Shown: one piece after another, positions 7,561 to 59,941 of the stretch
Layout of the letters: each line of letters begins with the position of its first letter
How positions within the stretch are numbered: position 1 is the first letter of the stretch
Assembly: GCA_043228905.1 (NCBI GenBank)
Contig: JBHGNT010000017.1
Location: 13,950,001-14,014,000, forward strand
Origin: Azolla caroliniana
Lineage: Eukaryota > Plantae > Polypodiophyta
Length of the DNA: 64,000 nt
Reading direction: 5' to 3'
Position numbers and translations under genes: made by a program
Notes under the pieces: generated by a model
What the model saw: only the letters and a program-made list of their open reading frames with translations
What the model was told of the DNA's origin: nothing
The model's database searches: none

Positions 7561-9670
7561 AGCGCGAGGGTTGAGATCCTCTACTGCCGACAAACAGACA
7601 AACCCTAATCACGGTGAAAGAACAAAAGAAGAAAATAATGGACAGAGGAATGGCTAGCTTGCTTCTGATGGAGAAGCTCGACAGAAGCAACTACGCATCT
7701 TGGTCGTACAAGATGCACCAATACTTGCTTGGGCATGGCTACTGGAGTTATGTCGATGGAGCTAATGACACAGCACCCCAATCGACACATAGAGGTTTCC
7801 CAGCTTGGGAACAGGCGGCAAGTAGAGTTCTCTAATGTTTCGCATCTTGTGTGAGCAATCAACTTCTGAGCTACATTCGGGATGCAAGGACGCCAAAGGA
7901 TGCTTGGGGAAATCTGAAGAAGATTTTCATCGTGAGCACCACAACCAGAAAGCTCTAACTCAGGCAAGAGTTGAGCAATGTTCGACAACGAGATATGTCG
8001 GTGGCTGATTACACCTCTAAGATCAAGGACATATGCGATTCTCTTGCCTCCATCAATGTAAACGTCGAGGAGGAAGAAACGGTGCAGAAATGCCTCGGAG
8101 GGTTAGCGTCGAAGTTCGGAGCATTCCAAACTGCTATCTGTACGAGGGAGAATGCGCCGTCGTTTTTCAACTTACAGTCGATGCTCCTAGTAGAGGAGAA
8201 TCACGCGGGTGCGTCAACGAGTACGCACGACGACAACAAGATGTTGTACATGGTGGAAGATAGGCCCCGTGGTCGTGGCGAATGAGGCGAGTCGGCGTGT
8301 AATGGAGGCGGCTGATAGGAGCAAGATGGAAGGCATGGTCGTAATGCCAACAATAGTTCCGAACCCTTCGCAAGCAGGGGGAGTCGAGGCGGTGCGAAAG
8401 GACAGAAGGTTGAGTCGGACATCGACCTATGGCACAAGTGGTTCGGCCATGTTCACTTCCCACGGCTTCGTGAAATGCAGACGAAGAACATTGTTTTCTG
8501 TTGAGAGATCAAGCTAATTAGTTTAGTTAGTTGGTCAACCATGTAACTTCCTAGTTACCTAGATAGAATCTAGTTAGAAGTATTGACTATAACGCCTTAA
8601 CTAGGACCTTGTACTTAAGTGGGATATTCTAGATCCTCCACTCCCAAGTACATTTAATATAGGACTTACACCCTTGTACCTATATTCTCCTCACACATGT
8701 GCACCCTTGCACATGAGACCTATATATACCTCATTGTGGGTATTTTTGTATTTTTTGATGATGTTGCTAATTTAATATAGTGTTTATCATCCCCCATCTT
8801 GTGTTGTTCATAAGTGTATCTTCCTCTCTCTCTTCCTCTCACACACATACACACACATATCACATAATCTTTCGCTTAGCTTAATCACATAATTAGGTAC
8901 TAATTAACCCATAGTTAATCACCTAATTCTTAATATTTTCGGATTGTTGAAATTTAGTGGCCGGAATGGTCAAGTCTGCGAAGCCTACCAGCTCGGGAAG
9001 CAGCACCGACCTCCATTTCCCAACGAGCGTAATCGGTGTCGAAATCCGCTCGATGTGATCCATTCGGATGTAAGGGGACCGACATAGAAGGTTAGCATCG
9101 GAGGAAGCCGTTAATTCATAACCTTCATCGATGACTTCACTCGACACACTTGGGCGTACTTGATCGCAAAAAAGAGCGAAGTCTTCGCATGTTTCCTGAA
9201 GGTGAAGAGCCTTGTGGAAAGGGAAACTGGGCTAGAGATCAAGTGCTAAAGGTCCAATGGCGGGAAGGAGTACTTCTGCGACCAGTTCTCGAGTTATCTA
9301 CAGGAGGGAATTCAACGCGAATTCTCGTGTAGATACACGCCGCAGCAGAACGGTGTGGCCGAGAGGAAGAATCAGATGATAGAGGAGGTGGCAAGGGCAA
9401 TGCTTGAAGAGAAGCGATGAGAACAACTTTCTACCTCCAGAATAGGGCATTTGCCAATGGAGGAGTGTCGCCACATGAGTTGTACTTCAAGAAGAAGCCA
9501 AACTTGGCACACTTGAGGGTTTTCAGTAGCATTGCGTATGTGCATGTGCTGAAGGAGAAGCGGAGGAAGTTGGACGCCAAAGCCGAGAAGTGTATCTTGG
9601 TTGGTTACTCGGACGAACAAAAGGGTTATAGGTGTTATAACCCCCGAACCAAACAAGCTCGCGTTGTCGT
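7561..9670 (+). mobile_element. Second Ty1/Copia fragment (gag, pre-integrase, integrase), degenerate
   Basis: EKLDRSNYASWSYKMHQYL gag; LWHKWFGH pre-integrase; TPQQNGVAERKN; KLDAKAEKCILVGYS; interrupted by a solo LTR. Confidence 0.9.
8499..8935 (+). mobile_element. Copia solo LTR
   Basis: TGTTGAGAGATC...TTAATA (terminal CA mutated to TA); 5-bp TSD TTTTC on both sides; homologous to LTR 26588-27022. Confidence 0.9.
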
Positions 9671-19989: not shown

Positions 19990-20840
19990 TGGCCGGTTCC
20001 GATCCTAATAGATACTCCCTTTAAGCCCATTGTAACCACCTGATTGAGGGATGCCACTTGCAATCCTTCCGATATCCTGCTTTGCAAAATCGCCGCCTTG
20101 TAATCCTGTAGATAACATGACATGTCCTTTCCATCGAACTGCTCGTTCTGTTGCATCAGTCATTCTACTACTGGCGTGGCCTCCGACATTACACGTTGTT
20201 CCTATAGCATTCGCTCGAACATTGTCATCATGTTGCTCACCTCTTGTTGATTCTCCATGTCCTGGCCACCTGTCTTCACGTCGGGTTCACCAAATGTGTC
20301 GTACCTTTCGGCGCCGGATCGTTGGGTGAGTCGGGTGGGAACCGATTTGGTTTTGGACTAGGAGGAGGAGGAATTTGAGGCAAATAAGAATATAAGACTA
20401 AAAGAGAGAGATGTAGAAAACCTCGTGAATTCCACGAGTGTATTATATTAGATTAATAAACCTTTAGAACCCTAATAGTAGATTGGATTAGATTAGGAAA
20501 GATAGATCGAAAAAAATCGTGAATCACACGAGTATAGTAAATCAGATCAATATTTAGAAACCCTATTAAAACCCAAGAATCAACAACCACAATGCATCTT
20601 TCTCATCTCCTTGTATAGTGATGGAAGATTTTAAGTATAGCTTACCACATGGCAAGCATCATGCTTTTTCTAAAGTGTTCATGCACACTAGATGTGCATG
20701 AATAGCTTTTTCTATCATGCTTTTTCTTCAAATTATAGTGATCATGCACGCTAGATGTGCATGAGTAGCTTTTTCGATACAATGTTTTCTTTAACTAAAG
20801 TTTTATGCACACTACACATGCATAAGTAGCTTTTTCTAGA
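19990..20840 (-). mobile_element. Second copy of the tRNA-Trp-primed element (LTR, PBS, gag start)
   Basis: Reverse-complement homology to 14100-14990; PBS at 20275-20292. Confidence 0.82.
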
Positions 20841-22945
20841 ATTTATACTTGAAACACGTTCGCGTTCAGAAGTGGAAGGATCGCGCATTACACTTTTAGA
20901 TTCCCTTTATAGTTACACAATTTTAGCCTGTTGTGAAATATGACGTGCACCAGTATCACATGATAAACCACAGAGGGTGAATTTATTGATTTATTAATCC
21001 GATACATCTCTATACCTAGAGAACATGCTATTTATTGGAGAAAATATAAATGTACTAGATTTATTCTTGCAATGTTTACAAACAATTATACTCACCCAAT
21101 CCTTAAATGCAATGAAATATTCCGATAATGCCTTGTACGAAGATGTTATCAGATATTCTTGAGTCACTTGTTCCCACGATAAGCAACCTAGTTGCTTCAT
21201 CATCACTTCTTGTATTTTCATATAGACTTTGTCGCTGAAAATTTATAAACCAACATTAAAAATTCATTTCTTAAAACAAGATAAACCATAAAAAATTTAG
21301 TAAGACCTTGTTGAACTCTGTAACCATTTCCTCTAGGCTCAGCTCCTTTCCTACAACTCTTAAAAGCACAGATATAAGAAGTTGCTCATTTTTTATCCCT
21401 TGCATTGCACTCCATAAAGACAGCTTCATATCATCTGCCACTTCCTCAATGGTAAGCTCAATCTTCTTGGCAGCTGAGCTCTTTAATTCTAATTGAGGGT
21501 CAACTTTTGACTTCTTTTGTCTTTGACCCTTCACTTCCTTATTCTCCCACATCGTAAATATTTGATCTTAAAGATCCTAGACTCCTCCATCCCTAAATGC
21601 GAGTTGAAACCACGACTCATACTTTCTGATTCCATCAGACTTCACCGCATCGTCCACCACAATTCCCACTTCGTGGAGACATTGACTCGTAGAGCTGGAT
21701 ATAATTTCGCTCCAAATTTGGTTTTCCCGTCAAGGTACTCGTGGTGAAAAAATCTAATGCGTTCGATGGAGGACATCTTCTGTCGGTAGTCATTGTCGTT
21801 ATTGTGGTCCCATGCTAACAACTTCGTCTCCTCAGTTGTTAGCCCCACATAAATTTTGCATTCCGCATATTTGAAGAAGTACGTTGTGGGATGCTTGCAG
21901 ACTAATTGTCGTCTTGCCTCCGCCGAGTGAGATCCTCCAATCACAAAATAATTGTATTAGTCGTGCTTCTTAATATCAAAATCCTCGAGCTTAGAGCACT
22001 CAAGAGGATCCACCATTACAATAAAAGGCACGATTGTTGCATGAGGGTTGATTTTCATCTTCTTCTTTAAATTTTGGACGTGCAGCTTATGTGGTTCTTT
22101 GATCTCCAAAGGGCGATGTCCTGTATTCTCATCTAGAGGGGGGAGATGAATATGGGTTATCGGAAGGTTAAAAACTTACCCCTTCCGCACAAGTTTTCTA
22201 TGTATTGTGTCCCTTCTAATTTTATTTTGTTCTGATGACAACACACCAGATGCAAACTCTGCTCCTTGTATAGATTGAGCCTCATCATCCTCTGTTGAAC
22301 TCGATGACTCAGAATTTGACATTTTCGTCACCTTCTTTTTTGGAGGCCTAGACTGCACCGCAGATTTCCTTATTGGTGCTTTAATAGGCGATAAGGAGGC
22401 TATCTTCAAATTAACATGACCTTGAATATATGGCCTTATTGTTGTTATTAATTTAGTACTTGTCTCAATAACACGTCGGAAGGATTCTGGCCCGCATGAA
22501 TCCTTCAACAAGTAGTCTTCTGAGACGATCATCTTTCGGACTCCTTTTGTACAGTTGACTAATACAATCAAATTAGTTGAGTCCGTGTCTTCATAGTCCA
22601 ACCGCAAGATTTTGCCATAGCTAAATGCACGATCTTGAGCAAGCATACCACGTCCAACCAGTCTAGTAACTAACAATACTATTTCTTTTTCGAGTCTACA
22701 AATTGCAATGCCCACTCAAATCCAGTTAAGTCTCTGTCTAACTGGCCCTCACTCCCTCCAACTGCGACAGATGTTTTATGACTAACCTCGTCAAACGGCT
22801 ACCTCACGACTTCGTCTTCAAACATGAGTTTCTTTCTCTTTTGTGGATATTTCACAACAAGGATCTTTGTGGTGTCTGGAGGTGAGCTTTGATACTTAAT
22901 CCGAATTCTGTTGAGTGGCAACTCCTCCTTAGGGTCAGTCGACTT
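20840..22945 (-). pseudogene. Intron-containing gene with a ParB/Sulfiredoxin-like domain, disrupted
   Basis: Reading through stops: VFNLPITHIHLPP..RPLEIKE..HVQNLKKKM..IVPFIVMV..YFVIGGSHSAEARRQL..CKIYVGLTTEETKLLAWDHNNDNDYRQKMSSIERIRF follows the ParB N-domain pattern; GT..AG intron at ~21307-21236 and a GTGAGT donor at ~21095. Confidence 0.6.
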
Positions 22946-23642
22946 GCATGAAATAATACAACAGATGAACCTAAACCTATATTCTCTCAAATGAAAATCT
23001 ATTGTAGTCTAGAAAATGCGAATACAAAAAATAGTTTGGCCTTATGAAGCTCTTGCTTGACCAGTAGTGTATGGGACCTACTTAAAGGATGTAGTCATAA
23101 GATAAAAAACCATAGCGAAAGGCACTAGAAAGGGAGTTGAGATAAGGGATTAGTGAAACCTAAACCTATATGCTCCTTACTTCAATTCAAGTATTGTTTT
23201 GTCCTCATTTAGTCTTATAGTAAGCACATTCGTAGTAAAGAAAGATTTGTATGGGGTGTCAAATTATATACAGTATGCAGATCGGTAGTATGGAATGCCA
23301 AATCAACAATCCAGTATTGTTTTGGCCTCATTCCACTGTTACAGTTAGTACAAAACTAGTAAGGTGGTTAAATGACATGAAGAATAGGAGAAAGAGGATT
23401 TGAAACCTAGGGACTAGAAAGAGGAAAATGTATATTTAATGTCTCAGAGTCCACCGGACACTAAGATTAGTAAGATTTTGGTATCCCTAGTAGTGTCTAA
23501 ATATCAAATTTCAGACCCAAATTTACCGTATTTTGACCTAATTTAGAATTTTTGAACCTAATTTTACTACTTATTTTTTGTCTAATGCCCGTTTTCGTGT
23601 CTCTGATGTCCCAAGTTAGATTAGTAGTGTTATCTGGGCCAC

Positions 23643-24412
23643 TATTCGATACATCGTATCGAGTTAGTGGTGACAATTCGTTACGTCGTATTGAGTTCTA
23701 ACCCTAAGGAGCCCAACTCGTTACGATGTATCGATTTTTAGCCCTAGGAGCCACAACTCGATACGCCGTATTGAGCTATGACCCCCAACTTGGTACGCCG
23801 TATCGAGTTTTAGCCCTAGGAGCCACAACTCGATACGGCGTATCGAGTTATGACTCCCAATTCGATACGCCGTATCGAGTTTTAGCCCTAGGAGCCACAA
23901 CTCGATATGCCGTATCAAGTTACGACCCCCAACACGATACGACGTATCGTGTTTTAGCCCTAGGAGCCACAACTCGATACTCCGTATCGAGTTATGACCC
24001 CCAACTCGATACGGCATACCGAGTTTTAGCCCTAGGAGCCACCACTCGATACGTCGTATCGAGTTATGACCTCCAACTTGATACTACATATCGAGTTTAG
24101 CCCTGGGAGCCACAACTCGATACGACATATCGAGTTGTGACTCCTAGGGCTACAACTCAATACGACGTATCTAGTTCTAGCCCTAGGAGCCACTAGATAT
24201 GGCGTAACGAGTTCTAATACGTAACTCGATACATGGTAACGAGTTCTAAAACTGAACTCGTTACATCGTATCGAGTTGAGTGTCAGAACTCGATACATCA
24301 TATATAGTTCTTGGTCTTGGATCTATAACTTGATACATCGTACCGACTTGTGACCCTCACGTTGATACAATGTACCAACTTCGGGCCATAACTCGATACA
24401 ATGTATCGAGTT
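23643..24412. repeat. Array of ~22 palindromes AACTCGATAC-N3-GTATCGAGTT (72-bp dimeric unit in the core)
   Basis: Palindromes start at e.g. 23755, 23787, 23827, 23859, 23899, 23931, 23971, 24003 (alternating 32/40-bp spacing). Confidence 0.95.
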
Positions 24413-25289
24413 ATGGATCCAGGACTTAGAAGTGGGCACGCAAGTTATTCTAAAAGAAATATAAAGTACGTAGATAGGACTATGTTCGTACAGTTTAGGG
24501 TTTAGATCCTACCTAGTGTCAAAATGGGTAGTCTTTTTGCTTGACATGATGATCGTGTCGGTTCGGGGATGTGTGAGGTATCTTGGGAGTCCTCGCGTCT
24601 GTGCTTTCACACTCTGGAGAGTGGTTATGCTCAAATGCGAGGAAAGAAAAAGAGAGGTCGGTTCTATTTATGGGGGGGGAAGGGACCATAGTTTAAAAAC
24701 TAACCACAGTTAGAATTAAATGCCATATAGTGCCTTTAGTTAATTTTATTTGAATTTGTATTTATTATTATCATAACATAATGATTATCTTTATACTTTA
24801 TGTGTAATATGTTCATTATGATCTAGTAGTTATGATTTCATACTTATTATGATTTAATACATGTGCAAGGTTACTCCAATGATTGAGTATACTTATCTAC
24901 ATTTATGGTAGTCTAATGATTTTGATGTGCAATAAAGTAAGAAATTATTTATAGAAATTGAGAACATTCACTAATTGGGTGAGGATAGTGGTATTGTGCA
25001 ATTATGTCACAAGGACACGTGATCAATGAATAGGAAGTTACATAAATGTTTTTTTAAAACCTACTTAAGGCACGTGACCATATAAGGGGGACAAGTATAT
25101 ATAACTACGCATAAGTTTAATTATGATTTATATTTTTAATATTTAACCTCTTTTAAATTTTTATTTATAACTAAAAAAATATATACAAAATACATATATA
25201 GTTCCTTAGAATTCTATTTGTAGTTTAAGCATGTCTTACAATTTGTATGCTTAGGGAGTGAAATATAAAGGATATTAGAACCTCAAACA

Positions 25290-26587: not shown

Positions 26588-29160
26588 TGTTGAGAGATCA
26601 AGCTCAACTTAGTTGAGTTAGTTAGTCAACACATGTAACTTAGTAGTGACCTAGATAGAATCTAGTTAGTGTACAGTTGACCATAAAGCCTTAAATAGGA
26701 TTTTGTACTTGAGTGGGATACATTGTACATCCACCACTCCATGCTTATTTAATATAGGACTTACACGTTGTACCTATATTCTCCTAGCACATGTACACCC
26801 TTGCACATGAAACCTATATATACCTCATTGAAGGTATTTTTGTATTTGATGATGTTTTATAATATACACTCTAGTTTACTCATCCCCCATCTTGTGTTAT
26901 TCATAAGTCTCTCTCTCTCTTCCTCTCACACACATACACAACCATATCACATAATCTTTCCCTTAACTTAATCACATAATTAGGTAATAATTATTCCTTA
27001 ATCAATTACCTAATCCTTAACATGGTATCAGAGCATGTGGTTTAACATATCCACTAAGCCCACCCGACTCTTTGTGATTGTGTGTTTGAAATGCCGATGA
27101 CAAATTCCGGCCACCCGCTACCGTAGTGCCACCACGTAGCACATCTATGATTTGATCCACTACGGACGGCAATCTTGGCGAGAGAAAACCCTCCTTCGTT
27201 CTTCAACCTCCAATCGATGTTATTGGTCAAAGAAAACCACGCTCGAACCAAAAGCAAGGCACCGGAAGGACAAATGTTCTTCTCAAATTCGGATGGTGGT
27301 CGGGGAAGAGGTCGTGGCGGTAGAAGAGAAAGCCATCGAGGAACCTTCGAAAGAAGGGGGAGCTTCCAAGCCGAACAAGGTTGGCAAACGAGGCCAACAA
27401 CTTGCAATTATTGCGGCAAAATCAGCCACTATGAGGCAGAGTGTCGGTAGAAAAGAAGCGAGTTGGCGTCGACAAACCGACAACTCACAAACTACGCCAA
27501 CAACTCCGAATACGAGGATTACGGCGGACTATTCGTAATGCGGCATAGAGCGAACTCTATGACGGCCTTTGACTCCGCAAGCATCTCCAATCCGGAAAAC
27601 GTGTGGTTCGTAGATTCCGGCGCCTCACATCACATGACATCCCACGAAGAGTGGTTTCGTGATCTACGAACTCCAGATCGACCCGGCTTCATAGAGAAGG
27701 GAGACAACACCACGCATCCCATTCGGCACATCGGCAATGTCCCATTCGCGAAAGAGGGCGAGCAAACTTGCATCAAGAATGTCTTGCACGTGCCCACAAT
27801 AACAAAGAATTTGGTGTCGGTCGGCCAAATCGTGGAGCAAGGCATGCAAGTCCGCTTCAACAAAGAAGGATGCTTCATCGAGAAAGATGGTCGAGTCGTA
27901 GCTAAGGGTGGGCAGAGAGAAGGCCGAATGTTCATCCTCAATTCGAACGAGGTGAAATCGGCAATGTACGCTAAAGGTCTCAAAAACGAGACGAACATCG
28001 AGTTGTGGCACAAAAGAATCGGCCACATCAACCTCCAATGGCTCCGAGCTATGAAAACAAAGGGAGTCTTCATTGGACTTCTGACATTCGAGTCGAAACG
28101 AGTCAACCGAGTATGTGAAGCGTGTCAACTCGGCAAACAACATCGACTCCCATTCCCGAAGGAGAGCCATGAGAGCAAAGGCCTCCTCGATGTCGTACAC
28201 TCGGATGTATGGGGACCGACTCAAACATCAACGATCGGCGGATGCCGATACTACATAACCTTCATCGACCACTACTTGCGCTACACGTGGATCTATCCGA
28301 TGAAGAAGAAAAGTGAAGTGCTCTCCCACTTCCAAAAGCTCAAGGGGCAAGTCGAAAAAGAAACCGGTCGGCACATTCGATGCCTACGATCGAATGGAGA
28401 AAAGGAGTACTTCTCCGATGAATTTACCTCCTACCTCCAAAGTGCAGGCATTCGTAGAGAATTCTCGTGCCGACCTACACCCCAACAAAATGGAGTTGCC
28501 GAAAGGAAGAATCGGCAAATACTTGAGGTAGCATGCGATAAGATGTATGAGAAGCACATGCCGAATTTCTATTGGGCTGAAGCGGCATCCACGACCGTCT
28601 ATCTCATGAACCGGTGCACCACCAATGGAGTCCATGAGCTAACTCCACACGAGCTCCTCGTCAGAAGGAAGCAGATCCTATCGCACCTGAAGGTGTTCGG
28701 AAGCATTGCGAATGTACGCATCCCGAACGAACAACGACAAAAGCCTAACGCGAAGTCAGAGGAATGCATCCTCATAGGATACTCATCCGAGAAGAAGGCA
28801 TACAAGTGCTACAACCCTTCTACCTGAGCGGTTCGGGTAAGTCGAGACGTAGTCTTCGACGAGTCCGCATCCTGGTACGCACCAAAGACAACTTCGACTC
28901 CGACTACGCTCGACCCGGAATCCGCCGAACAAGAGGTAGAAGATGGAGATTGCTTCGAACACATGTTCGAAGAAAGTCCGATTACGGCAAAGCCTAGTGG
29001 GCCACAAGAGCCCCCACGCGACCCAAGCACGTCGCGGCCAAGTACAACTTGGACAAAGGCAAAGGTAGGATGTCCGAATACGAAGTCGACCACCCCGAAG
29101 ACAATGATTCGGATGGATCGGCTCCATCACTAGACAGTGAGTTTGGTGTACCCATCATAC
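26588..29160 (+). mobile_element. Copia element 5' part: LTR, PBS, deleted gag, protease, integrase
   Basis: LTR 26588-27022 (TG...CA); PBS TGGTATCAGAGC 27023-27034; WFVDSGASHH, LWHKRIGH, CEAC, HSDVWGP, TPQQNGVAERKNR. Confidence 0.93.
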
Positions 29161-30258
29161 CTCGATAATCCACAACCAAACAAATTGAGTCGTCCTTTTT
29201 CTTCACGGAAAAGATAGGAGCACTAGCTGGAGACTTTGAATGTCGAATAAATCCACTTGCAAGATTCTCGTCAATGTATGCTCGAAGAACCTCAAGCTCT
29301 GTTGGTGACAGATTGTAGATCGGACCCCATGGTGGCTCTTTTTCTGGTTGTAGATCAATGGGACAATCGTATGGCTGATGCTTTGGAAGTACACTAGCTT
29401 TGACTTTGTCGAAGACATCAACATATTCTTGGTACTTTTTAGGAATGTAGACCTCTGACTTCCCTTGAGTGTCACTAGAAGGTGCAACTGATATGGCAAA
29501 TAAGAATAAATCTTCTTTTGCTCCTTCTTGGCATAATTATTCTAGGGTGATGATTGAAATTTGATGAAGAGGAACAACATGTTTGGTAGAGGGTGAATTG
29601 GTAACCCTATGTTTTTCAAGGGGAGGATCCTGGGTTCGACCCTTGACTACTATGTTTCCTTTTGAAGGGCACCTAATTTCTCGTCGTCTCCAATCAATTC
29701 TTGGGTTGTGTAGCTCGAACCATGGCAAACCAAGGACTATTGGATGCTCAGGGATACGGATTATGTTAAAGGAGACCACACATCCTAAATCACCTAAGAG
29801 TATGTGTATCGGCTCAGACTCCTCTAATATCTTTCCAGAAGCTCTCATCGCCTATCTTGTATCCATTCTTATTCTACTTTAATACATTCATTCTTCTCTT
29901 ATCATTTCATTCCTCTTCTTGTGATCTCTTTATATCTTTCTTCTATCACTTTACCTTCTCTCTTGGTTCTAACAGTTTGAGAAGAATTGGTTTGAGAAGA
30001 ATTGTATGTCCATATTTAGAATAACCTAGTGATTTCTATAATGTTCTAGTATGTTCTAGACCTAGAATATTCTAAGATGTTCTAGGATATTCTAGAATGT
30101 TCTAGGATGTTCTAGAACATTTACAATATCAGTCTATTACAAGAAGTAGCTTTTATTATTTCATATAATCATCTTAATGGTTAGATTCTTGATTATGTAT
30201 TACAAGGTTTTGGGTTCAAGCCCAAGTGAAGCCACATAATGTTCACGGATTCATGACA
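29161..30258 (-). mobile_element. Gypsy (same lineage as 10360) protease/RT fragment with a rearranged LTR
   Basis: HPIVLGLPWFELHNPRIDW and FVKKKDDSICLVVDYRG on minus; LTR outer end TGTCATG at 30258. Confidence 0.82.
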
Positions 30259-33157
30259 GTGGGTCTCACCACTGAAGATGAAGGACAAGGTACTATCCTT
30301 CCTCAAGGAATTCCACGCGAGGGTGGAAAGGGAAACCAGTCGGGAGCTGAAGGTGGTTCAAGCGGACAACGAAGGAGAATACCGGGGGCAGTTCGAAGAG
30401 TACCACTAGTCGAAGGGAATCCGGCTCGAATTCCGGAGCATGCTAGCACATGCGAAACTGCCCAAGACGTTTTGGGTTGGGGTGCTAATGACAATGACGT
30501 ACATGATAAACAAATCACCCTCAGTGCCCTTCGAAGGAGAGTCGCCGCAGAAAGTATGGACCGGTAAAGATGTGTCTTACCGGCATCTAAAGGTGTTCAA
30601 TTGTCTCGCTTACATGCATGTTGCAAAGGACAAGAGAGCTAAATTGGATCCGAAGTCCTGGCCATGCATATTCCTTGGATACAGTGATGATGAGTTTGGG
30701 TACCGTGTGTGGGACTTGGTCGACAAGAAGGTCTTCCGGAGTCGAGACATAGTCTTCATGGAAAACAAGGCTATTATCGGCAGGGAGTTGGAGAAGAAGA
30801 TAGCGGACTCCGGGTCAACCGACAGAGATCGGTCGAAAGACACAAGGACCCATCTGACCGGAAGCCGGATAACACTCGAAGAACCGGCCGGATTCAGACA
30901 AGAAATCGAATCGACCGAAGAAGAAGAAGAATTGGATACCGGAACCGGACAAGACCTCGAATCGGATTTGGATGAAGAACAAATGGTGGAACTGGTGACC
31001 GAAGACCAAGGAAGAAGATATTCTCTCAGGGAGAGAAGAGCCCCCCGAAGATTTCCGGATGCAGAGCATGTGTTGCTGACCGACGAGGGGGTGTCGGAAA
31101 GCTTCGAGGAAGCGAAGAAAGACACCCAAAGCCACAAGTGGTTAAGTGCCATGCAGGACGAGATGGATTCCCTACATGAGAACCACACATATAAATTGAT
31201 GGAGTTGTCGAAAGGAAAGAGAGCGCTCCGGAACAAGTGGGTGTACAAGCTGAAACCAGGAGATGCCAGAAATCCACCAAAGTACAAAGCCCGCATTCTG
31301 GTGAAAGGCTTCTAGTAGAAGAAATGAGTGGATTTCTATCAGATCTTCACCCTGGTAGTAAAGATGACATCCATCCAGACTGTGTTGAGCATAGCAGCAA
31401 GCATGGACCTCGAGGTAGAGCAACTAGACGTCAAGATGACGTTCCTACATGGCGACCTCGAAGAAGAGATCTACATGCAATAGCCGGAGGGATTTGTCAA
31501 GAAAGGGAAGGAGCGCTTGGTGTGCCGGTTGAAGAAGAGCTTATACGGACTAAAGCAAGCTCCCAAGCAATCGTATCGGAAGTTCAACTCCTTCATGACC
31601 GACCAAGGATACCACAAGACGCGGACCGACCACTGTATATTTGTGAAGAATTTTGACGGGGGAGACTTCCTAATACTCCTGCTATATGTGGATGACATGT
31701 TGCTAGACGTCAAGATGGCGTTCCTACATGGAGACCTCGAAGAAGAGATCTACATGCAATAGCCGGGGGGATTTGTCAAGAAAGGGAAGGAGCGCCTGGT
31801 GTGTCGGTTGAAGAACAACTTATACGGACTGAAGCAAGCTCCTCGGCAATGGTATTGGAAGTTCAACTCCTTCATGACCGACCAAGGATACCACAAGACA
31901 CGGGCCGACCACTGTGTATTTGTGAAGAATTTTGACAGAGGAGACTTCCTAATACTCCTGCTATATGTGGATGACATGTTGATCGTCGAACTGGACCGAA
32001 CCAAAATTGGGAATCTGAAGAAGGCCTTGAACCAGACCTTCTCAATGAAAGATTTGGGTCCGGCAAGACAAATACTAGGGATGCACATAATCCAGGATCG
32101 GACGAAGAAACAGTTGTGGCTATCACAAGAGAAGTGTGTAACAAAGGTACTTCAAAGGTTCAACATGTCAGATGCTAAGCTAGTCGGGTTGACACTCCCG
32201 GAAAATTGCAAGCTATCCGAAAAGCAAAGTCCGAAGACAAAGGTAGAGAAGTCGGAAATGATGAAGATACCATATGCGTCTGCCGTCGGAAGCTTGATGT
32301 ACGTAATGGTGTGTACCCGGTCGAATATCGGATATGCTGTCGGAGTGGTCAGCCGGTTCATGAGCAATCTGGGAAGAGAACATTACACCGCGGTCAAGGG
32401 GATACTCCAGTACTTGAAAGGCAGCTTGAGTATCTACCTCTGATTCGGCTCCAGAAAACCCCAACTTGAAGAATTCACGGATTTAGATATGTCAGTTGAT
32501 GCGGATACCAACCGATCAACTTCCAGATATGTTATGACATATGCAAGGGGAGTCGTATCGTGACAATCGAGGCTGCAAAAGTCCGTTGCACTATCGACAA
32601 CGGAAGAGGAGTACATGGCAGCCGAAGAAGCCGGTAAAGAGGTAATCTGGATGAAGGACTTCATCGGAGAGCTAGGGATCCGGCAAGAGGAATTCCGGCT
32701 CTACTGCGACATTCAAAGTGCTATCCACCTTGCGAAGAACATGGCCTACCATTCCTAAACCAAGCACATCCAGAGAAGATATCACTGGCTCTGGGAGAAG
32801 GTAGCAAATAAAGAGTTCGTGCTGACAAAGATCCACACAGAGGAAAACAGGTAGGACATGCTAACCAAGGTGTTGTCGACCGATAACCTAGACGCGTGCA
32901 GGAGACGGATCGTATTGGCAAGACATCCCATGCAGGAGTGAAGGGGGAGCTTGTTAGGAATTCGGTCCCTCTAGATGGGATCCGGATCGGATGGATCCGG
33001 TGTGGACTGGATCCAGGGCCATATCTATAAATATGTTTCTGATGTACCTATCATGGCTATATTCGTAAAGTATAGCCCTAAAGTCATATAAGTATAAATA
33101 TGACTTAGGGCAATCATGTTATATGACTTTTGTAGTTGTAATTATTGTTATATAGAG

Positions 33158-33192
<35 letters not shown>

Positions 33193-33450
33193 CAAAAATC
33201 ATTTATGTTGGAACCGCCGGTTGGCAAAGGTATAGAGCTCGCGGTCATTGCCTCTGAGTCTCTTGTTATAGCCTTTTCTTCTCATAGTGATAGTTGGAGT
33301 CTGTGGGCTCCCGTGGTTTTTCCCTATTAGGGTTTTCCACGTAAACATCATGTGTCCTCTCCATTGTATATGTAAGTGTATTAATCTCCATTTCTGTTTT
33401 TGTTCTTCCATTGAGTTTAAGACTCGGTTGTTGTCGAGTGCTATTCCACA
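30259..33450 (+). mobile_element. Copia (Tnt1/Tork-like) integrase-RT-RNase H and 3' LTR, with a 279-bp internal tandem duplication
   Basis: KLDPKSWPCIFLGYS, WLSAMQDEMDSL, LYGLKQAP, LLYVDDML twice; PPT gaagggggag; LTR from TGTTAGG at 32952 to ~33450 containing (GA)n. Confidence 0.92.
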
Positions 33451-34470: not shown

Positions 34471-34910
34471 GAAGTTGAGTCTTTACGATATCAAAACAAT
34501 GTTAATTTAGAAGTACATTTTTCAGCTAAATCTTGGGACGAGGAGCATGTAGGATTTTTCGATTTGTGAATCGGAGTTCAAAAGCCCAAGATACATCCTC
34601 CAAAAGGATCAATGTTACCTTTAAGATCACTCGGGACACAAATGTAATTGTATCAAAAGGGGCAGTTCGAAATTACATGAGGGTGATTTTGTAATTTCTC
34701 AAATGTACAATTACAAAATAGAATTTACAAAAATTATAATAAATTTATTTATTTATTTTTAAAATAAAATATAAATATTTTAAATAAATAATGCAACTGC
34801 CCCTACATGAGGGGGTTTACAAACCGCCTCAAAGAGGGTGGCAGGGCGGTTGAACCCCCAAAGGTGAAGGATGCACTCAAGAAGTTGACAATCTGAGCAA
34901 CAGAAGCTAA

Positions 34911-34991
34911 GAAAAGAAAGCCAAGTTGGTCTCGGGTGCTAGATTACGGTTTTGATCCAAAAGAGCATGGGTTCAAATCCCACTCTCATCA
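34911..34991 (+). pseudogene. tRNA-Leu(AAG)-derived pseudogene
   Basis: gccaagttggtct..agattacggtt..atgggttcaaatcccactctcatca; degenerate 5' end and anticodon. Confidence 0.75.
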
Positions 34992-35109
34992 TAATTCAAT
35001 TAAAATTGATACATGTAATGTTTGTTATCTAAATGAGTACTTCAGAGTGTAAACTTGGAAGTTTATGCCCCTATCTTATTTGAGAATGAAACAATTTGAG
35101 ATTTAGATA

Positions 35110-35190
35110 GACGATGTGACCGAGTTTGTCTAAGGCGCCAGATTAAGGTTCTAGTTCGAAAGGGCGTGGGTTTAAATCCCACTCTCATCA
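35110..35190 (+). tRNA. tRNA-Leu(AAG), best-preserved copy but probably a pseudogene
   Basis: 81 nt close to plant cytosolic tRNA-Leu(AAG): ccgagtttgtctaaggcgccagattAAGgttctagttcgaaagggcgtgggtttaaatcccactctcatca; acceptor-stem mismatches and T-loop TTT instead of TTC. Confidence 0.75.
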
Positions 35191-35522
35191 TAGTTCATGT
35201 GGTTTCAATTCCCACTCTCTTCATAATGCAATTTAAATTAATTACAAAATGGTTGTTATCTTAATAAGTACTTCAAGGTGTAAACTTGGAATTGCTCAAT
35301 GTTTTTATATCTTATTTTCGAATCAAATGAGATATAGTCAAATTAGTATCATGAGCCATATAAAGGTTCTTGTTTGAGATGGTCCATGGACTAAGGTTAT
35401 GGTTTAAGGAATCAGGGTGACAATCAAAATGTGTAAAACTATGAATGATTCAAACTAATCATGTTTTCTTCATGATTGAGCTGAAAGCATTTTAAGTGCG
35501 ATGAGCTGGTTTACTAGAACCA

Positions 35523-35603
35523 TAATGAAAGTGGGATTTCAACCCATGCCCTTTCAGTTAAGAGCCTTTATTTGGTGCCTTAGACCAACTCAACCATCTC
35601 ATC
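35523..35603 (-). pseudogene. tRNA-Leu-derived pseudogene, inverted copy
   Basis: Reverse complement gatgagatggttgagttggtctaaggcacc...gggttgaaatcccactttcatta. Confidence 0.75.
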
Positions 35604-35843
35604 ACACCAAAGAGGGCAAAGAAGATGAGCATTTTAACAGTGATCATTTCAAACCTAACTATGATCATTACAAAGCTAACTATTTAAAGGCATCGACATA
35701 AGGATGGGTTCTAGAGGCACTTTCACCATGCGTGACATAAATTCTTATAAAGTGTGTTCACTACGTCATGTGGTCGTGCACAATTGTATATGATTCCAAC
35801 TGTATTCAAAATCATAAGGATATAGCATTAAAACACCAACCTA

Positions 35844-35924
35844 GATGAGATGGTTGAGTTTGACTAATGTGCCAAATTAAGGTTCTTGTCCGCAACGGTG
35901 TAGGCTCAAATCTCATTCACATCA
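35844..35924 (+). pseudogene. tRNA-Leu-derived pseudogene
   Basis: gatgagatggttgagtttgactaatgtgccaaattaaggttcttgtccg...ggctcaaatctcattcacatca. Confidence 0.72.
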
Positions 35925-36296
35925 TGGTTCAATTAAAATTAATTACAACATGTTAGTTATCTAAATAAGTATTTGAGGGTGTAAACTTAGAGTTGCTTGA
36001 ACTATTCATCTCTCACTCACATCATGGTTTAAGTAAAATTAATTACAACATGTTAGTTATCTAAATAAGTACTCAAGTCTGTATTCTTAGGTTTGTTTGG
36101 TCCATTCATACCTTATTATCGAATTAAATGAGATGGTGTAATTAGTATCATGAACCCGATGAAGGTTCTCCTTTGAGAGGGACTGCATTTATGGTTTAAG
36201 GAAAATGAAGATGAAACCTAAAGTTGTAAAACTATGAACAATTCAACCAATCTTTTTTTTTTGTGACTAAGGTTTAAAAACACCTTAAGTATATTG

Positions 36297-39200
36297 GGAA
36301 GAATGTATGCCCAGGAAATGATGGATTATCACTAGAATTTTTTTTAGAATATTGGGATGATATAGCCGATGTTTTCACATCCTCTTTACAAGAAGTTTTT
36401 AAATTGGGAAGGACGCCTGCTGAATGGAATGAAGGAATGGTTTATTTGATTCCAAAATTAGAAGGTGCGGTGGATGATATTAAGAAATGGAGGCCTATAA
36501 CTCTTTTAAATATTGTATATAAAGTTTATGCTAAATTATTAGCGACACATCTGCAACCTTTTCTTCCACATATTGTGCATAAAACTCAGACAGGCTTTAT
36601 ACAAGAAAGGAGTATATTTGATAATATTTTCATGTTTTGGGAGATGATAGCAATAGCGCAAGAAACAAAACAAGAATTGACAATGTTGCTTTTGGATTTT
36701 GAGAAAGCATATGACAAAGTCGATTGGGATTTCTTATATGAAGTTATGGGTCGTCCAGGTCTTCCAAGTGACTATGTAAAAGCTGTTTTTATATTATATA
36801 ATTCAGCAACTAGTCGTGTTCTTGTTGGAGGAGCACTATGTAATACTTTCCCGATTACTAGATCGGTGAGACAAGGATGTCCTTTGGCTCCATATTTATT
36901 TCTATTGGTGGGAGAAGCCTTTACTGCATTCTTACATAAGAATAGGTTACCTATTAAAGGAATACAGTGGCCAGGTGTGGAGGAGGTTGTGTTAGACTTT
37001 GAATTTGCAGATGACACATCACTATATGTTGTAGGAGATGACATAAATCTCTGTAATGTGCAAAGTGTGATCCATGATTTCTGTGATGCTTCAGGCGCAA
37101 TTATCAATTGGCATAAATCAGTGGGATTTTGGGTTGGGGAAAGTCTTACTCCTACTTGGTGTCTAGACAGTGGATTCCGTAGGATACCAAAGGGCTCTCC
37201 TGTGAGATATTTAGGATGCCAAATGGGAATTAATCTTCCTCCAGAAGCTCATATACAACCATTATTGCTTTCTTTGAGGAAGAAATTGATATTTTGGAGT
37301 TCTAAGAATTTGTCACTTGTTAGGAGGCTAGTTATTTCTAATCAAGTATTACTCTCCTCAATGTGGTATATTCTATCCTCTTGGTTATTCTCCAGTTCAT
37401 TGTTATCAAAGTTACAGAGATTGATTAGGAATTTTTTATGGGGATCTACTGATTTTAATTATGTTAGACCAAAGGTAGCTTGGAAAACTATTATAGCGCC
37501 GACTTCTCAAGGGGGTTTAGGTTTGGTAGATCCATTATTGGCAAAATTTATTGTATGAGGATTACTACTAGGAAATGAGCCGTGGACGATGCTTCTTCAA
37601 TTGAGAATGAAAGAGGTCTTCCCAAAAACTGGAGGTGAATGGACAATGTCTCTCCGATGGTGGTTTATTCCTAACTTTCATTCGCATAAGATAGTGTTTC
37701 AAAATGATAGATTCTTCGCTGCGATAAAGCGACCCTGGTGGTCCATAAAGGATAACTTGCAACAAGTCTGACCCACTTCGGTAGATGAATGGTTACATCA
37801 GCCATTGGTTTGGAATCCTTTATTTCTAGACGTTGAAGGGTCTATGTTGGGAAGGAGAGTCGGATTAAATTGGGCTCAAGTGGACTCATCTTTTGCCTCA
37901 TCACTAGGTAATTGGCAACAGTTTGTTCACAACCCTACTCATATTATTCAACAAGAATGTAGAGGAATAAGAGGAGGAAAGGTGATAGTTGATGAGTTAA
38001 GGAGGTTGCAGTTACCCTTGCAGGATAATATACTTTCTAATTGTCATAAGTGGATGGGATTATTTTCGAATTTTCAGGTTTTACTGGGAGTTCGTGGCCT
38101 TAGAGATGATGGTACTTTCTTAATTTATGATGTTCTACAGAATGGACGATTATGGATGATTAACTAGGAAGATGAATGGTTGGCTAAGGCTATATTAAAA
38201 CCCATTAGAATTCTAGCTAAGGTAGATAAGGGTTGGGTTCTTGACCCTAATCCTAATGATGTGCATCCATGGTGGGATCTATGGGTAGTGGGAAAAAAAC
38301 CATTATGTGAATTGGATTGGGACCCAGGAGAATGGAAGTGGCTACCTACATCATATTCTGGGGAGGATGTTAGGCCAATTCCGTTTTTTCAGTATTCCGT
38401 TCGATTGGGAAGGGAGATGATAAGACGTAGGGTACCCCATTGGCCGACAGCAGCAACAAAATGGTTGACTTATAATGTGGATCCTACTCACATGACAAAA
38501 TTTTGGAAATGGCTATGGGCTATGCAAATTCCAAAGAAGATTATTCTATTTAGATGGTTGATTGTTAATTATGCGGTTCTTGTTAGAGCTTGGATGTATT
38601 GTAAAGAAGTGGATAAGATGTGTGATTTTTGTGGTTTAGAAGTGGAGTCTCTTCATCACCTATTTTGGTCATGTATGGCTACCAAATTGGTTTGGAAAAG
38701 ATTTTAACGTCTCTTGCATGAGGTTTATGGATCTAGAATATATAAATGGGGGGCAGTTATGTGGGCTAATATTAAGGGTGAGGTACAAGATTATGAAAAA
38801 GAAAATGTTAACTTTGCATTATATACAAGAGGTCGATATGTTGAGGAAGTGTCACCATACATGCCTATTAATTCAGTCCAAAATGGCGTGGTTTGGGAGA
38901 CGATTAGTTCAATAATTATATGGGTTTTGTGGACTAGTAGATGTCGAAGGATATTTCAGCAAATTCAATGGAATGTTGTGGATGTAGTCAAGGAGATTTG
39001 GATGACCTTAGTGCATACACTAAAAGGAGAATATGATGCTACCAAAGGTGATCCAGATGTATCTTTTGAAAGCAAGAGGTTTTTAAGAAGAGATGGGAAA
39101 GGATAAAGGTATTCTGCATGGTTGATGGTGGTATACGTTGGAGGTATCAGCCACCACTCTGGGTATTTCTTCCACAAACATGAGGCATGTGTCAATGTAT

Positions 39201-39775: not shown

Positions 39776-39944
39776 AAAAACACCTTAAGTATATTGTATG
39801 ATCATTTCAAAACATACTAGTTAAAAATGTAAATGTAGTGTTGGGTTCCAAGTGCACTTACGACATGCTTGACGTAAAATCTTTTAATGTTCACTAATTG
39901 AAGTGGTCATGGACAATCATATATGATTCCAACATCTGAAACTA

Positions 39945-40242
39945 GAGGAGATGGATGAGTTAGTCTAAGATGCCAAATTAAGGTTCTAGTTCGAAAGTAA
40001 GTATTTGAAGATGTGAATGTAAGGATGGGTCTAACGACACTTTCTGCATGCTTAATGTAAAATCTTTATCACTATGTTCACTACTTCAAGCGGTTGTGCA
40101 CAACCATATATGATTCCAACATAATTCATAATGATCATAAATATGGCTTTAAAATGTCCTAAACAAGATGACATTGTTGAGTTGGTGGAAGGTGTTGAAT
40201 GTTTTGGTTGGAAAGTGTGTGGTTCAAATCCCACTCTCATCA
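39945..40242 (+). pseudogene. Two more degenerate tRNA-Leu-derived copies (39945-39997, 40167-40242)
   Basis: gagttagtctaagatgccaaattaaggttctagttcgaaag; ggttcaaatcccactctcatca followed by the shared downstream flank. Confidence 0.65.
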
Positions 40243-41145
40243 TGGTTCATCTACATGTTTGTTCTCTAAATGAGTACCTAAGAGTGTAAACATGGAATTG
40301 TTTTATGTGTTCATATCTTATTATCAAATCAAATGATATGGTTAAATTAGGATAATGATCGAGATAAAATATCTTGTTTGAGGGGCCTACATTTATGGTT
40401 TAAGAAAAATTAAGAACGCAAAAAGAAGGTGTTTAGTAATTTTGGCATGCTTAACGTAAAATCTTTTAAATTATGTTCATTACTTCAAGTGTTTGTGACC
40501 ATAATTTATTCCGTGGTAGTTTGTACCGTAGTATTCTACACATGAGGATAAAAGTGTGAGGGTTAATCAAGAGTGTAAAGAAGGAAGGATTACTTTTAAT
40601 CCTATGGACTGGGACAACCCTTAAGGGCGAAGTATAAACTTGCCTAAGGGACTTAGGCCTGGCAATAAAGATAAGGCATAGGTGTCCTCATTAGCCACAT
40701 TATTCAACTACATCAATATTGTCACCTTGTGATGAACAAACTCTTGTGGCGAGATAGCACTAGTACGAGGTATGACTCGGTGCCATGGCAGTGGTATGGG
40801 ATGTTGTTCAAGCGTTGGATCCGTCTCGATCCCTTCATTCAGGGGTGATTGGTTGGATCGACACCCTTCTTTTTGGCAGAACACACAAAAACGATTTTAT
40901 CGCTTGAAATCTTGATCCAAGAATTCATTAGGTATCTTGCATTTCCCAATGAATTGCAATTGCTTAGTCCCAAAGTACTTCAAGTTTATCATGGTCCTTC
41001 TTTGAAGTGCATTGATAACAAGAACCAATTTCAACGGTTGCTTTGAAGGATTTTGGACCCTTATCGTGCACTATCCAATGATAGTCTAAATTTGGGATGT
41101 CATTGACAAAACAAAAAGTTCACCAATTGTCCCATTCAAGACCTG

Positions 41146-52911: not shown

Positions 52912-53984
52912 CTCTAGACTCTCTCTCTCTCTCTCATATTTGTTGTTTCTCTGCAAAACATGTTTATGAGGGACTTCATCAACCACATACTCGTATTTCA
53001 AGCCATTATTTTACTACTAAGCCCCTTTTCTTAGGATCAGATGACTTCACATGTACTCTTGCTTGCAACTTACATGTTCTATCTTAAAATCTTTGTCATG
53101 TATTGTGTTGAGAACTTCATAGGAACCTATGGGGAATATCTACAATGCAATCTATGAATATGATATTAAGAAGCTCATATGAATCCCAAATTTGGTGCAC
53201 ATGTAACTGTTCTTATAGTAGTACAACATGTAACAGTTCTTATGGTCTCTTGTATTTGCAACCTAAGACGTAGAAGTAATTAATGGTTCAAAACCACAAG
53301 TAACCTATAAATCCCATTTTTCTAGAATAATAGGATTTGGTAACAGGAAATAGTCAATCATTGGGCGAAGGGTTCATGGTAATCTTATTCTTAATGGAAT
53401 GATTGGAGGTGTGTATATGCATGAGCATGCTGATTTGTGTGAAACCATATGTCATGGACTCTATTTCTTCTAATTTTGAAATGCTTCGCTGTTTTTAAAT
53501 GGTTTGGTGGTTCCGTTTAGGCTTGAGCTTCCTCAGCCGGTTTGAGCTCAATTAGGTTTGGCTTGGGCCTTTCGAAACAGGTTAAGCCTTAACTAGTTTA
53601 GAGATCAGTTTAGTTTAGGCTTGACAGGTTTGTCTTGGACGAGGTCAAACTGGTTAACTGAAACCTAACCATTGCCGATTCCAAGTCGGGATTGACAAAA
53701 CTTGGGTTCGGGCCCGAACCGAGCCGTGAAACCGTGGTGTAACCGGCTCGGTTTATGTAGTTCTAGAGATAAGCAAATGGCTCGAGTTCGGTTCAAGGGT
53801 ACCGTTTGCTGCTTCTCAACCCCAACAATTCCTTCTTTAAGTTTCTGTTGTAAAGAAACACCTGCCAACATAACCCTAATACTTGAAGAAAAATGAATTT
53901 GAGGAACAGATGAGAAGCATTGGATGATTTGCTTTGATTTGATTTAATTATATTTGATCTGATATGGTTTGATTGTATTGAAGA

Positions 53985-58282: not shown

Positions 58283-59941
58283 TTAACTCTGCAACATTTT
58301 TAATCTCATGGCTTGTACCTTTTCAGCATCCTGTTTCATGTTAGAGGCCGAATAGATATTAGCCATGAGGGTATAATGAGCATCATTACTATGTAGTTGT
58401 GATGCATTTTCAAAGGCAAACCTCCCTAGATCCACATATCCCCATTTCCGACATGCACCTAAAAGAGCAGCCCAAACCGGTGGATAGTCTGAACATGGCA
58501 TCTTCTTAATTGCTGTCACTGCCTTATCTATATGTCCGGCCCGACCAAATATATCCACCATGCAAGTATAGTGCTCTAAATCTAGAAACATGCCATGACT
58601 TTGACTCATGTTAACAAAACATGTTTCTCCCTCATCCACCAAGCCAGAGTGACTACATGCATTGAGCAAACATAAGAAAGTGACAATATTTGGGGTTAGC
58701 CCTTCAGATACCATTTGTTTGAAACATGCCATCGCTTCTATTCCTTGGCCTCCTTGGGCATATCCCGAGATCAATGCATTCCAAGAGGTAATGCTCCGAT
58801 TCGGAAGCTTTTGAAGCACTTCGTATGCTTTCAGAAGAGCCCCACATCTCGCATACATATCAACCAAAGCAGTGCCAAGCACAGCATCGTTTTCTAGCAA
58901 CCCTTGCTTATCAATTTCATCATGGATCTCCTTTCCTTTGTCAAATGCTCCCATGGATCCACAAGCTTTTAAGACGCAAGTGAATGTGATTTCATCAGGC
59001 AATATGCCGTCTTGTCTCATCGATTCAAGACAATCTAGTGCTTCTTCAGCCCTACATTGTTGTAAATATCCTGAAATCAGTGCATTCCATGAGACTATAT
59101 TTCGAGTCGACCCTAGATCAGAGAGAGCTTTTCGAGCTTTTACAAGGCACCCGCATCTCGCATACATATCAACCAAAGCATTCCCAAGACGGACATCATC
59201 GTCTTTCAACAAACGTTTGGCCATAATCTCATCATGAACCTCTTCACCCATGCAAAGCTTTCTCATGCGTCCACAAACTTTCAAAATACAAGTAAACGTG
59301 ATAGAATTAGGTGCTATACCTTCATTCTTCATGCATTCAAAGCAATTTAATGCTTCCTCATCTTGCCCCAACCGAATATATCCTGTTATTAGAGCATTCC
59401 AAGTGGCCACATTTCGGGTCGGCATCTTGCAAAGCACATGCTTTGCTTCTATCAACACACCAAATTTAGCATACATATCCACCAAAGCATTGCTAAGCAC
59501 AACATGTTTGTTGCTCTCCAATAAACCCTTATTCATAATCTCGCTATGAATCAATCTCCCCTTCTTTATGGCTGGAATGGATCCACAAGCCTTCAACAGA
59601 GAAGTATATGTTACAGAATCAGACGAGAAGCCATCACTCTGCATCTCATCATAAGCTTTCATGGCCTCCTCACATTGACCCAAATGGGTATACCCTGAGA
59701 TGAGGGCAGACCAAGAGACACTATCCCTGAAAGGAAGGTTTTCAAGGACTTGGTGGGCTTTTGTGATCATACCACATTTTGCATACATACTCACCAGAGT
59801 GTTACCCACATAAGGGCTCCTCTCAAGTAAGCCCTTCTTCAGAATGCTTGTGTGAGCTCTCATACCTCTGCATAGATCTTTCTTCTGTGTGCAGTCCTTC
59901 AGTAAGGCCACAAAGGCCATACCTTCCTTGCATTGCTTCAT
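58283..59941 (-). CDS. PLS-class PPR protein, E subgroup
   Basis: Intronless ORF with PLS repeats, EHYTCMVDIFGRAG, WAALLGACRKWG, YTLMANIY; first ATG at 59941. Confidence 0.93.
   Translation of the reverse strand: MKQCKEGMAFVALLKDCTQKKDLCRGMRAHTSILKKGLLERSPYVGNTLVSMYAKCGMITKAHQVLENLPFRDSVSWSALISGYTHLGQCEEAMKAYDEMQSDGFSSDSVTYTSLLKACGSIPAIKKGRLIHSEIMNKGLLESNKHVVLSNALVDMYAKFGVLIEAKHVLCKMPTRNVATWNALITGYIRLGQDEEALNCFECMKNEGIAPNSITFTCILKVCGRMRKLCMGEEVHDEIMAKRLLKDDDVRLGNALVDMYARCGCLVKARKALSDLGSTRNIVSWNALISGYLQQCRAEEALDCLESMRQDGILPDEITFTCVLKACGSMGAFDKGKEIHDEIDKQGLLENDAVLGTALVDMYARCGALLKAYEVLQKLPNRSITSWNALISGYAQGGQGIEAMACFKQMVSEGLTPNIVTFLCLLNACSHSGLVDEGETCFVNMSQSHGMFLDLEHYTCMVDIFGRAGHIDKAVTAIKKMPCSDYPPVWAALLGACRKWGYVDLGRFAFENASQLHSNDAHYTLMANIYSASNMKQDAEKVQAMRLKMLQS

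Follow-up and report, generated by a model that had tools for sequence, protein, structure and literature searches.

The window, by which we mean the whole 64,000-nucleotide stretch of Azolla caroliniana DNA analysed here, is plant DNA rich in repeats, where PPR genes and retrotransposons are found, and it harbours an array of interrupted palindromes that raises a straightforward question: what reads such an array, and to what end? A preliminary description, made from the letters of this DNA, had counted about 22 palindromes of 23 bp, and this count stands. Defining a unit as two 10-bp arms flanking three free bases (23 bp) and scanning the window in full, we found, at 23643–24412, 22 units with at most six mismatches out of the 20 arm positions, 21 with at most four and 20 with at most three. 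By comparison, base shuffles of the whole window (n = 100) gave a mean of 0.07 sites at the four-mismatch level against these 21, and outside the array the scan found no unit at that same level. The spacings are 32 bp (ten times), 40 bp (eight times), and 31, 37 and 39 bp (once each). The 32/40-bp phasing of the preliminary description stands as to the values, with one correction as to their alternation: the core of the array (23712–24071) consists of five copies of a 72-bp dimer, identical at 62–64 of 72 positions, so that in the window alone this alternation stands for one amplification, and not for many independent spacings.

The arms had also been described as constant, the 3-bp centre as variable and the edge linkers as diverging, and this is what comparison of the units displays. 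Pairwise identity among the 11 edge units reaches 79% for the arms, against 26% for the 9-bp linkers (n = 5) and 41% for the 17-bp linkers (n = 3), while the centres of all 22 units are 45% identical; every centre that had been named is present, together with GAT, TAC and ATG. The array is, as had been noted, rich in CpG (observed over expected 1.51, GC 46%) within an AT-rich setting (0.58–0.69 and 35–39% in the flanks).

The transposon that carries the array

Metagenome contigs searched for exact matches to the palindrome yielded at least 120 loci, with flanks taken for 80 of them, the majority of the array loci deriving from one set of related assemblies. Among the loci listed, 98 hold at least two units; 43 of these are 2 kb or longer, and in 37 of them we see a gene or an end of one and the same kind of element, which goes against the alternative, raised at the outset, of a generic satellite unlinked to it. 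Seventeen single-unit loci with neither gene nor end were treated as chance or unplaceable matches. Because contigs from three DNA runs (three studies) cover 30 of the 30 element bins with many variants, the family can be taken as multi-copy. One of its members, L023, is a near-complete element of 8.6 kb, in which the transposase, an upstream region shared by the two genes, and gene B, whose short exon 1 is followed by the array, lie in this order between the two ends; no third gene was seen in it. The parts of the copy present in the window are as follows.

20853–20887, plus strand: 35-bp terminal inverted repeat at the gene-B end (24 ends compared; the other end lies outside the window)
21073–21078, no strand: junction of an internal deletion of about 2.05 kb, where L023 position 6354 is joined to 8404
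21096–21242, minus strand: exon 3 of gene B, 94% identical to exon 3 of L023
21304–22943, minus strand: exon 2 of gene B, for an N-terminal beta domain, a predicted ParB/Srx fold and a KorB/ParB-like helical domain
22944–24512, minus strand: predicted intron 1 of gene B, containing the array, with an acceptor damaged here (comparison with relatives)
23643–24412, no strand: array of 22 interrupted palindromes (10-3-10) with spacings of 31–40 bp (arm scan)
24513–24547, minus strand: predicted exon 1 of gene B, with ATG, 11 codons and two bases, and GT donor at 24512; conserved in five related loci
24665–24672, minus strand: putative TATA-like site upstream of gene B, aligning to a TATA box in L023
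25290–26587, plus strand: gene A, a DUF7869 DDD-type transposase, divergent from gene B
26588–27022, plus strand: retrotransposon LTR inserted in the transposase gene, foreign to the element and marking where it is cut off

As far as sequence can tell, the host element is likely to be a Sola-like DNA transposon of the cut-and-paste, terminal-inverted-repeat type, with inverted ends of 35 bp. Three acidic motifs are visible in its transposase, which matches PF25273 (DUF7869) above cut-off, a domain that we take to be that of the Sola transposases. Both ends are complete in L017, L029 and L062, and L023 and L004 are two-ended, with one end cut by the contig. Over the 24 ends compared, base 1 is A in 23, base 2 is A in 20 and base 3 is C in all 24, and the base at −1 is A in 14. 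A 4-bp target site duplication matches fully in none of three two-ended contigs, and at three of four positions in one, these being collapsed high-depth contigs, the flanks of which may belong to different insertions. End-anchored search for copies in viral_contigs and genome_contigs gave no match. In L016 (161–821) an element end is directly followed by another array and a gene-B remnant, probably a copy inserted in a copy.

The minus-strand ATG (24547) and GT donor (24512) that had been proposed are indeed there, and exon 1 with its donor is conserved in L023, L019, L112, L007 and L033. The proposed TATA-like site, located in the upstream region common to the divergent genes A and B, faces a fuller TATA box in the aligned L023 sequence. 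As for the placement of the array in a first intron, the family bears it out: all 28 loci tested have the array upstream of exon 2, and in L023 exons 1 and 2 join in frame; the window copy itself departs from it, its acceptor reading AA instead of AG. No joint of exons 1 and 2 was found among the matches listed in contigs of runs X13, X21, X22 and X23, a result that weighs neither way.

The copy in the window is a dead one, with an array in decay. In its gene B, exon 2 contains in-frame stops and frameshifts, and the deletion of about 2.05 kb took away the methyltransferase exons 4–6; its gene A has lost internal sequence near 25650, has a stop codon at 26275 and is cut by the LTR insertion at 26588. 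The arm CpGs have decayed (9 of 44) much as those of the gene bodies (13 of 51 and 7 of 29), so that protection in trans against 5mC decay, which we sought in this copy, is not visible there. In L023, the CpG ratio of the coding parts (0.70–0.96) is not above that of neighbouring LTR elements (0.84–1.15). That the copy is dead, that it belongs to a transposon with terminal inverted repeats, and that gene B continues into a methyltransferase in more intact copies are three points that the preliminary description had missed.

Around this copy, the window contains other repeats. A repeat of very high copy number, containing a 63-bp tandem unit (20600–20850), abuts the terminal repeat on its outer side, and on the other flank nested LTR retrotransposons (26588–33430) truncate the transposase, the first LTR having a copy, 84% identical, at 8498–8936. 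Further on, degenerate dispersed repeats of about 90–130 bp with a tRNA-derived look (34900–36200 and 39900–40400; families D11, D13, D14 and D19) surround a LINE fragment (36278–39100), and PPR genes with E motifs, ordinary genes of the host, lie at 53982–56660 (plus strand) and 58283–59965 (minus strand).

Constraint and phasing of the array across the family

Comparison of the related copies shows a helically spaced array under constraint, with arms and centre length kept while the linkers change. Among 674 half-sites examined, of which 80 were unpaired, the centre measures 3 bp in 587 of the 594 that were paired. We then have 20 loci where the synonymous sites of gene B are saturated or nearly saturated with respect to L023; leaving out six that possess one or two units, the same majority arm is found in all 14 of the others, while their linkers resemble those of L023 (0.07–0.54) at, or modestly above, the level of shuffled linkers (0.10–0.37). 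Arm conservation is partly built into this comparison, because all loci were found by the palindrome: each locus was bound to contain one exact match, a condition that does not extend to its other units or to its linkers. An equal divergence of arms and linkers had been named beforehand as the pattern that would speak against selection; across related loci, arms were kept and linkers changed.

The length of the array differs among copies. To examine the spacing, we retained 88 of the at least 120 loci, those with at least three units, together with the window, and considered linkers of spacing up to 75 bp, from which those bearing half-sites were removed, 340 being kept. The 378 distinct linkers of the 88 loci give spacing peaks at 31/32, 40/41, 50–52 and 61/62 bp. 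Taking as in phase a spacing that departs by no more than 1.6 bp from a multiple of 10.3, this is the case for 102 of 129 linker families defined at 80% identity and for 45 of 70 defined at 70%, where uniform spacing would give 33%; the best period is 10.0–10.1, and the p-values attached to this phasing overstate it, as linker families are related and not fully independent. A shared majority arm, a nearly fixed centre length and in-phase spacing in the relatives give substance to the original suggestion of selection on a dimeric protein site set at helical-turn intervals.

The protein of gene B

More intact copies show gene B to encode a predicted fusion of a ParB fold, a KorB/ParB-like helical domain and a beta-class N6/N4 DNA methyltransferase. 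Its closest named relative is found in Ceratopteris richardii. In the predicted structure of an intact relative, P0002 (pLDDT 79.8), the chain runs from an N-terminal beta domain through a ParB/Srx fold to a helical region; Foldseek places ParB and Noc on top (E about 3e-5), and VIA finds PadC (Z 9.4, rmsd 3.2 over 100 residues) and KorB (Z 8.4, rmsd 13.8 over 180). The match of residues 348–517 to the KorB operator-binding domain is middling (Z 5.1, rmsd 4.2, 105 aligned), as is that of the helical part to a ParB–parS domain (Z 4.1). Searches of Pfam and of PDB sequences gave chance matches only and did not detect the ParB fold. Box II, placed by the strand–helix layout of the predicted model, reads GGSHS in 12 of 13 loci and GRSHS in one, with GGNH, GGGH or AGTH in distant relatives; the GxxR arginine of the CTPase clamp is absent from it. 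Two copies of P0002 residues 205–517 were predicted as a homodimer with a score of 0.57, the best of three controls reaching 0.01 (contact agreement of at least 43% and pLDDT of at least 75 across runs), at a mark passed by 21 of 30 solved homodimers and none of 23 single chains from microbes, and by 17 of 29 and none of 30 from eukaryotes. Possibly, memory of solved ParB dimers accounts for this pass.

The N-terminal beta domain (P0002 residues 37–158, about 22380–22750 of the window, minus strand) is well folded in the model and is the fastest-changing part of gene B; it weakly resembles the SANTA domain of M18BP1 (Z 5.4, rmsd 5.1) and PH folds, and no Atlas match was found for it. The language-model features of residues 200–517 match fungal DUF3723 clusters at 0.96, which suggests that DUF3723 may be a relative of the ParB fold. 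DUF3723 is tied to fungal giant elements.

The methyltransferase is carried by three more exons, into which gene B extends in L023 (PF01555, E 1.3e-10). A DIPY sequence (motif IV) precedes DLFSG (motif I), in the beta-class order, in L023, L014, L026 and L042, and DIPY is also found in L012. The ParB, helical and methyltransferase parts are all under strong purifying selection (dN 0.06–0.14, synonymous sites saturated or nearly so), the methyltransferase having dN 0.06–0.07 at saturated dS. A full-length relative, P0074, has a predicted fold like that of CcrM (E 1.9e-10), M.BceJIV and M1.HpyAVI; adenine enzymes come on top of its structure matches, a 4mC enzyme coming 27th with a similar score. 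The D-type motif IV, a variant of DPPY, and the top matches lean to 6mA as the predicted product. A contig from run X21, which we guess to be RNA, lacks precisely the 93 bp of the intron that separates exons 5 and 6, and lacks as well 38 bases that belong to no intron.

Profile search collected 572 proteins at E of 0.001 or less. Scanning 35 of them revealed PF01555 in nine, six of which share a chain with the ParB-like part; exon 4 alone, used as a query, found no homolog, and no relative of gene B was found in viral_contigs. Twenty relatives were looked up, the named records belonging to Chara, Riccia, Adiantum, Ceratopteris and Ginkgo. Two proteins of this collection, P0063 and P0179, depart from the common plan, with a Chara model that has two ParB–methyltransferase units per chain and another protein where a SAM domain comes before the helical part.

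Known systems and readings of the array

The array is probably a docking site, set out in helical phase, for dimers of the ParB-fold/DNA-methyltransferase protein that the element itself encodes, the product of gene B being, on the strength of the models, its likely binder. Each dimer would read both 10-bp arms; spacing by whole turns would place adjacent dimers on the same side of the DNA and so allow cooperative loading; the attached beta-class methyltransferase would then methylate adenine, or cytosine at N4, in the shared promoter region close by or over the whole element, for regulation of its own genes or in order to keep copies mobile. Copies deprived of genes would depend on protein supplied in trans by others, and deletion derivatives of about 3.5 kb do retain both ends and array. 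We do not extend this proposal to spreading as a CTP clamp, given the missing GxxR arginine; loss of the Box II arginine abolished nucleotide binding in the ParB folds tested in the portions consulted of 10.1101/2025.10.10.680097.

The design of such an element is already in print for algae, Ectocarpus and Bostrychia. According to PMC12477816, Sola1-1_Ec32 of Ectocarpus, a Sola1 transposon, resembles the present, likely Sola-like family in having a fusion gene of ParB-like and N4C/N6A methyltransferase parts opposite the transposase, termini starting with AAC and a target site biased to a final A; its fusion protein has been proposed to bind and modify its own element. It belongs to a brown alga, with 21.5 kb and 282-bp ends, whereas here we have about 8.6 kb and 35-bp ends in a land plant; the main text of that paper gives no palindromic target, and the likeness is one of description, not of protein alignment. 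In the Plavaka elements of Bostrychia (PAG2/PAG3), a ParB-like accessory gene likewise sits beside tandem arrays of inverted repeats, proposed as binding sites, with an N6-adenine methylase within the same element, according to the accessory-gene section of 10.1101/2025.02.11.637652. There, however, the transposase is of the Plavaka/EnSpm type, the fusion partner of ParB is a 2OG oxygenase, and the methylase has a gene of its own, fused to SET; the PAG3 type of ParB–oxygenase fusion is not found in gene B, where the C-terminal enzyme is a methyltransferase, and the section gives no unit sequence, phasing or retention in derivatives. VANDAL elements of Arabidopsis, as presented in the portions consulted of PMC5735166, resemble ours in having an accessory protein, VANC, with tandem target motifs in introns and upstream regions, including its own intron. 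VANC removes methylation, contains DUF1985/DUF287 and has fast-changing, non-palindromic targets, in contrast with a candidate methyl writer and a long-conserved palindrome; no Pfam match to a MuDR transposase, DUF1985 or DUF287 was found in the element.

Bacterial ParB/parS, Noc and KorB also combine a ParB/Srx fold followed by a helical DNA-binding region (a candidate one in gene B), a dimer (predicted in our case) and a palindromic site (10.1101/2025.10.10.680097, in part), and phage ParB–N6N4-methyltransferase fusions are of the same type as gene B in the sections consulted of PMC4738411, which further describe phage ParB loci and chlorophyte adenine methylases fused to ParB-HTH (Iyer 2016). 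Gene B differs from bacterial ParB in being a eukaryotic gene with predicted splicing, with neither the GxxR arginine nor parA, and in having dense, phased 23-bp sites and an extra N-terminal beta domain. Eukaryotic beta-class amino-methyltransferases are known in MpDN4MT1 of Marchantia (10.1101/2021.02.12.428880, in part) and in N4CMT of rotifers; these are host genes, with TSPPY in Marchantia, whereas here we find DIPY in a ParB-fused enzyme borne by a transposon. A term search in the accessible text of a preprint on a retrotransposon methylase found neither ParB nor Sola. No report of a land-plant ParB–methylase transposon was found in the freely accessible literature searched.

Transposon genes of the ParB type that may bind and modify their own element have been proposed for red and brown algae, without a test in the passages concerned, and according to the Bostrychia passages VANDAL is the sole transposon in which this is known (10.1101/2025.02.11.637652). 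With the present family, the idea of self-marking becomes open to direct test: the candidate target is exactly defined (10-3-10), the spacing of the sites follows a rule, some genes are near-intact and deletion derivatives occur naturally. Should the idea prove correct, a transposon of a land plant would be writing a bacterial-type DNA mark of its own, and the protein with its site would make a compact tool for targeted methylation.

A bolder reading, possible and yet rather doubtful, sees in the array a eukaryotic parS, required in cis for mobility: ParB–methyltransferase dimers from autonomous copies would load in phase, spread or loop to the ends, and write a 6mA or 4mC mark licensing transposition or blocking 5mC silencing, with a module that would be old in streptophytes, given the fusion proteins of Chara, Riccia, Adiantum and Ginkgo. 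Since the mark would license mobility, gene-less derivatives would keep the array. Three two-ended elements of 3.50–3.52 kb have indeed only the 3′ ends of both genes left, with 6–9 units kept, and at least four further array-to-end junctions exist in other contigs; because the loci were found via the palindrome itself, this retention cannot be called obligatory. Were this reading true, land plants would possess a hidden, locus-specific source of non-5mC methylation.

The same derivatives, which retain ends and array after losing most of both genes, as a cis-acting mobility site would, also suit an internal transposition enhancer, bound by the transposase in order to assemble or synapse the ends while gene B acts elsewhere. 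CACTA subterminal motifs and the Mu enhancer offer analogues. We hold this unlikely: in the 400 bp beside either end there is no half-site with fewer than two mismatches, and half-sites of L023 with at most one mismatch are confined to the array, 3.6 kb from the nearest end; the N-terminal parts of the transposase, moreover, have diverged to 41–51% identity (in L020 and L022 only), while the helical domain of gene B is kept at 78–97% and the palindrome is unchanged.

Its situation in a predicted intron 1, near the shared upstream region, would be convenient for an intronic enhancer of both divergent genes, bound by a transcription or chromatin factor of the host. Plant transcription factor sites are typically shorter than this two-fold site of 20 bp, with its fixed 3-bp centre and its whole-turn spacing; the element has its own candidate dimeric ParB-fold protein, and the window contains no further unit at up to four mismatches. 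A host factor thus appears quite improbable as the reader of the array.

Slightly less credible still is a role as single-strand structure, in the form of hairpins of the intron RNA or DNA cruciforms. Two observations favour such structures. Of the arm changes (353 in all), 25 have a mirror change across the centre alone, 10 across the linker alone and 11 across both; and linkers of the 49–53 and 58–64 spacing classes show more self-complementarity than do cross-paired controls, with, for example, 0.63 against 0.37 at position 2. The 31/32 and 40/41 classes, which are those of the window, have no such excess, and hairpins provide no reason for a 10-bp spacing period. Changes that a G–U pair would tolerate are in no excess on the sense strand (78 against 77; 22 against 13, p 0.18). 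The balance of C>T (78) and G>A (77) on the sense strand of gene B, over 243 units from 46 loci, is as expected for duplex DNA under 5mC decay and does not fit a selected RNA hairpin. The long self-complementary linkers, for which the docking reading offers no explanation, may reflect template switching or a second constraint; at L062 (3128–3718) and other loci with 49–64-bp spacing, they are partly inverted repeats, of differing sequences.

There remains a neutral minisatellite riding on the transposon, homogenised by unequal exchange and with palindromes repaired by template switching, which the recent amplification of the 72-bp dimer, the variable array length and the background-rate arm decay of the window copy would suit, and which we consider very improbable, because homogenisation would carry the linkers along, whereas the arms outlast a saturated synonymous distance and the linkers are replaced with their in-phase lengths kept.
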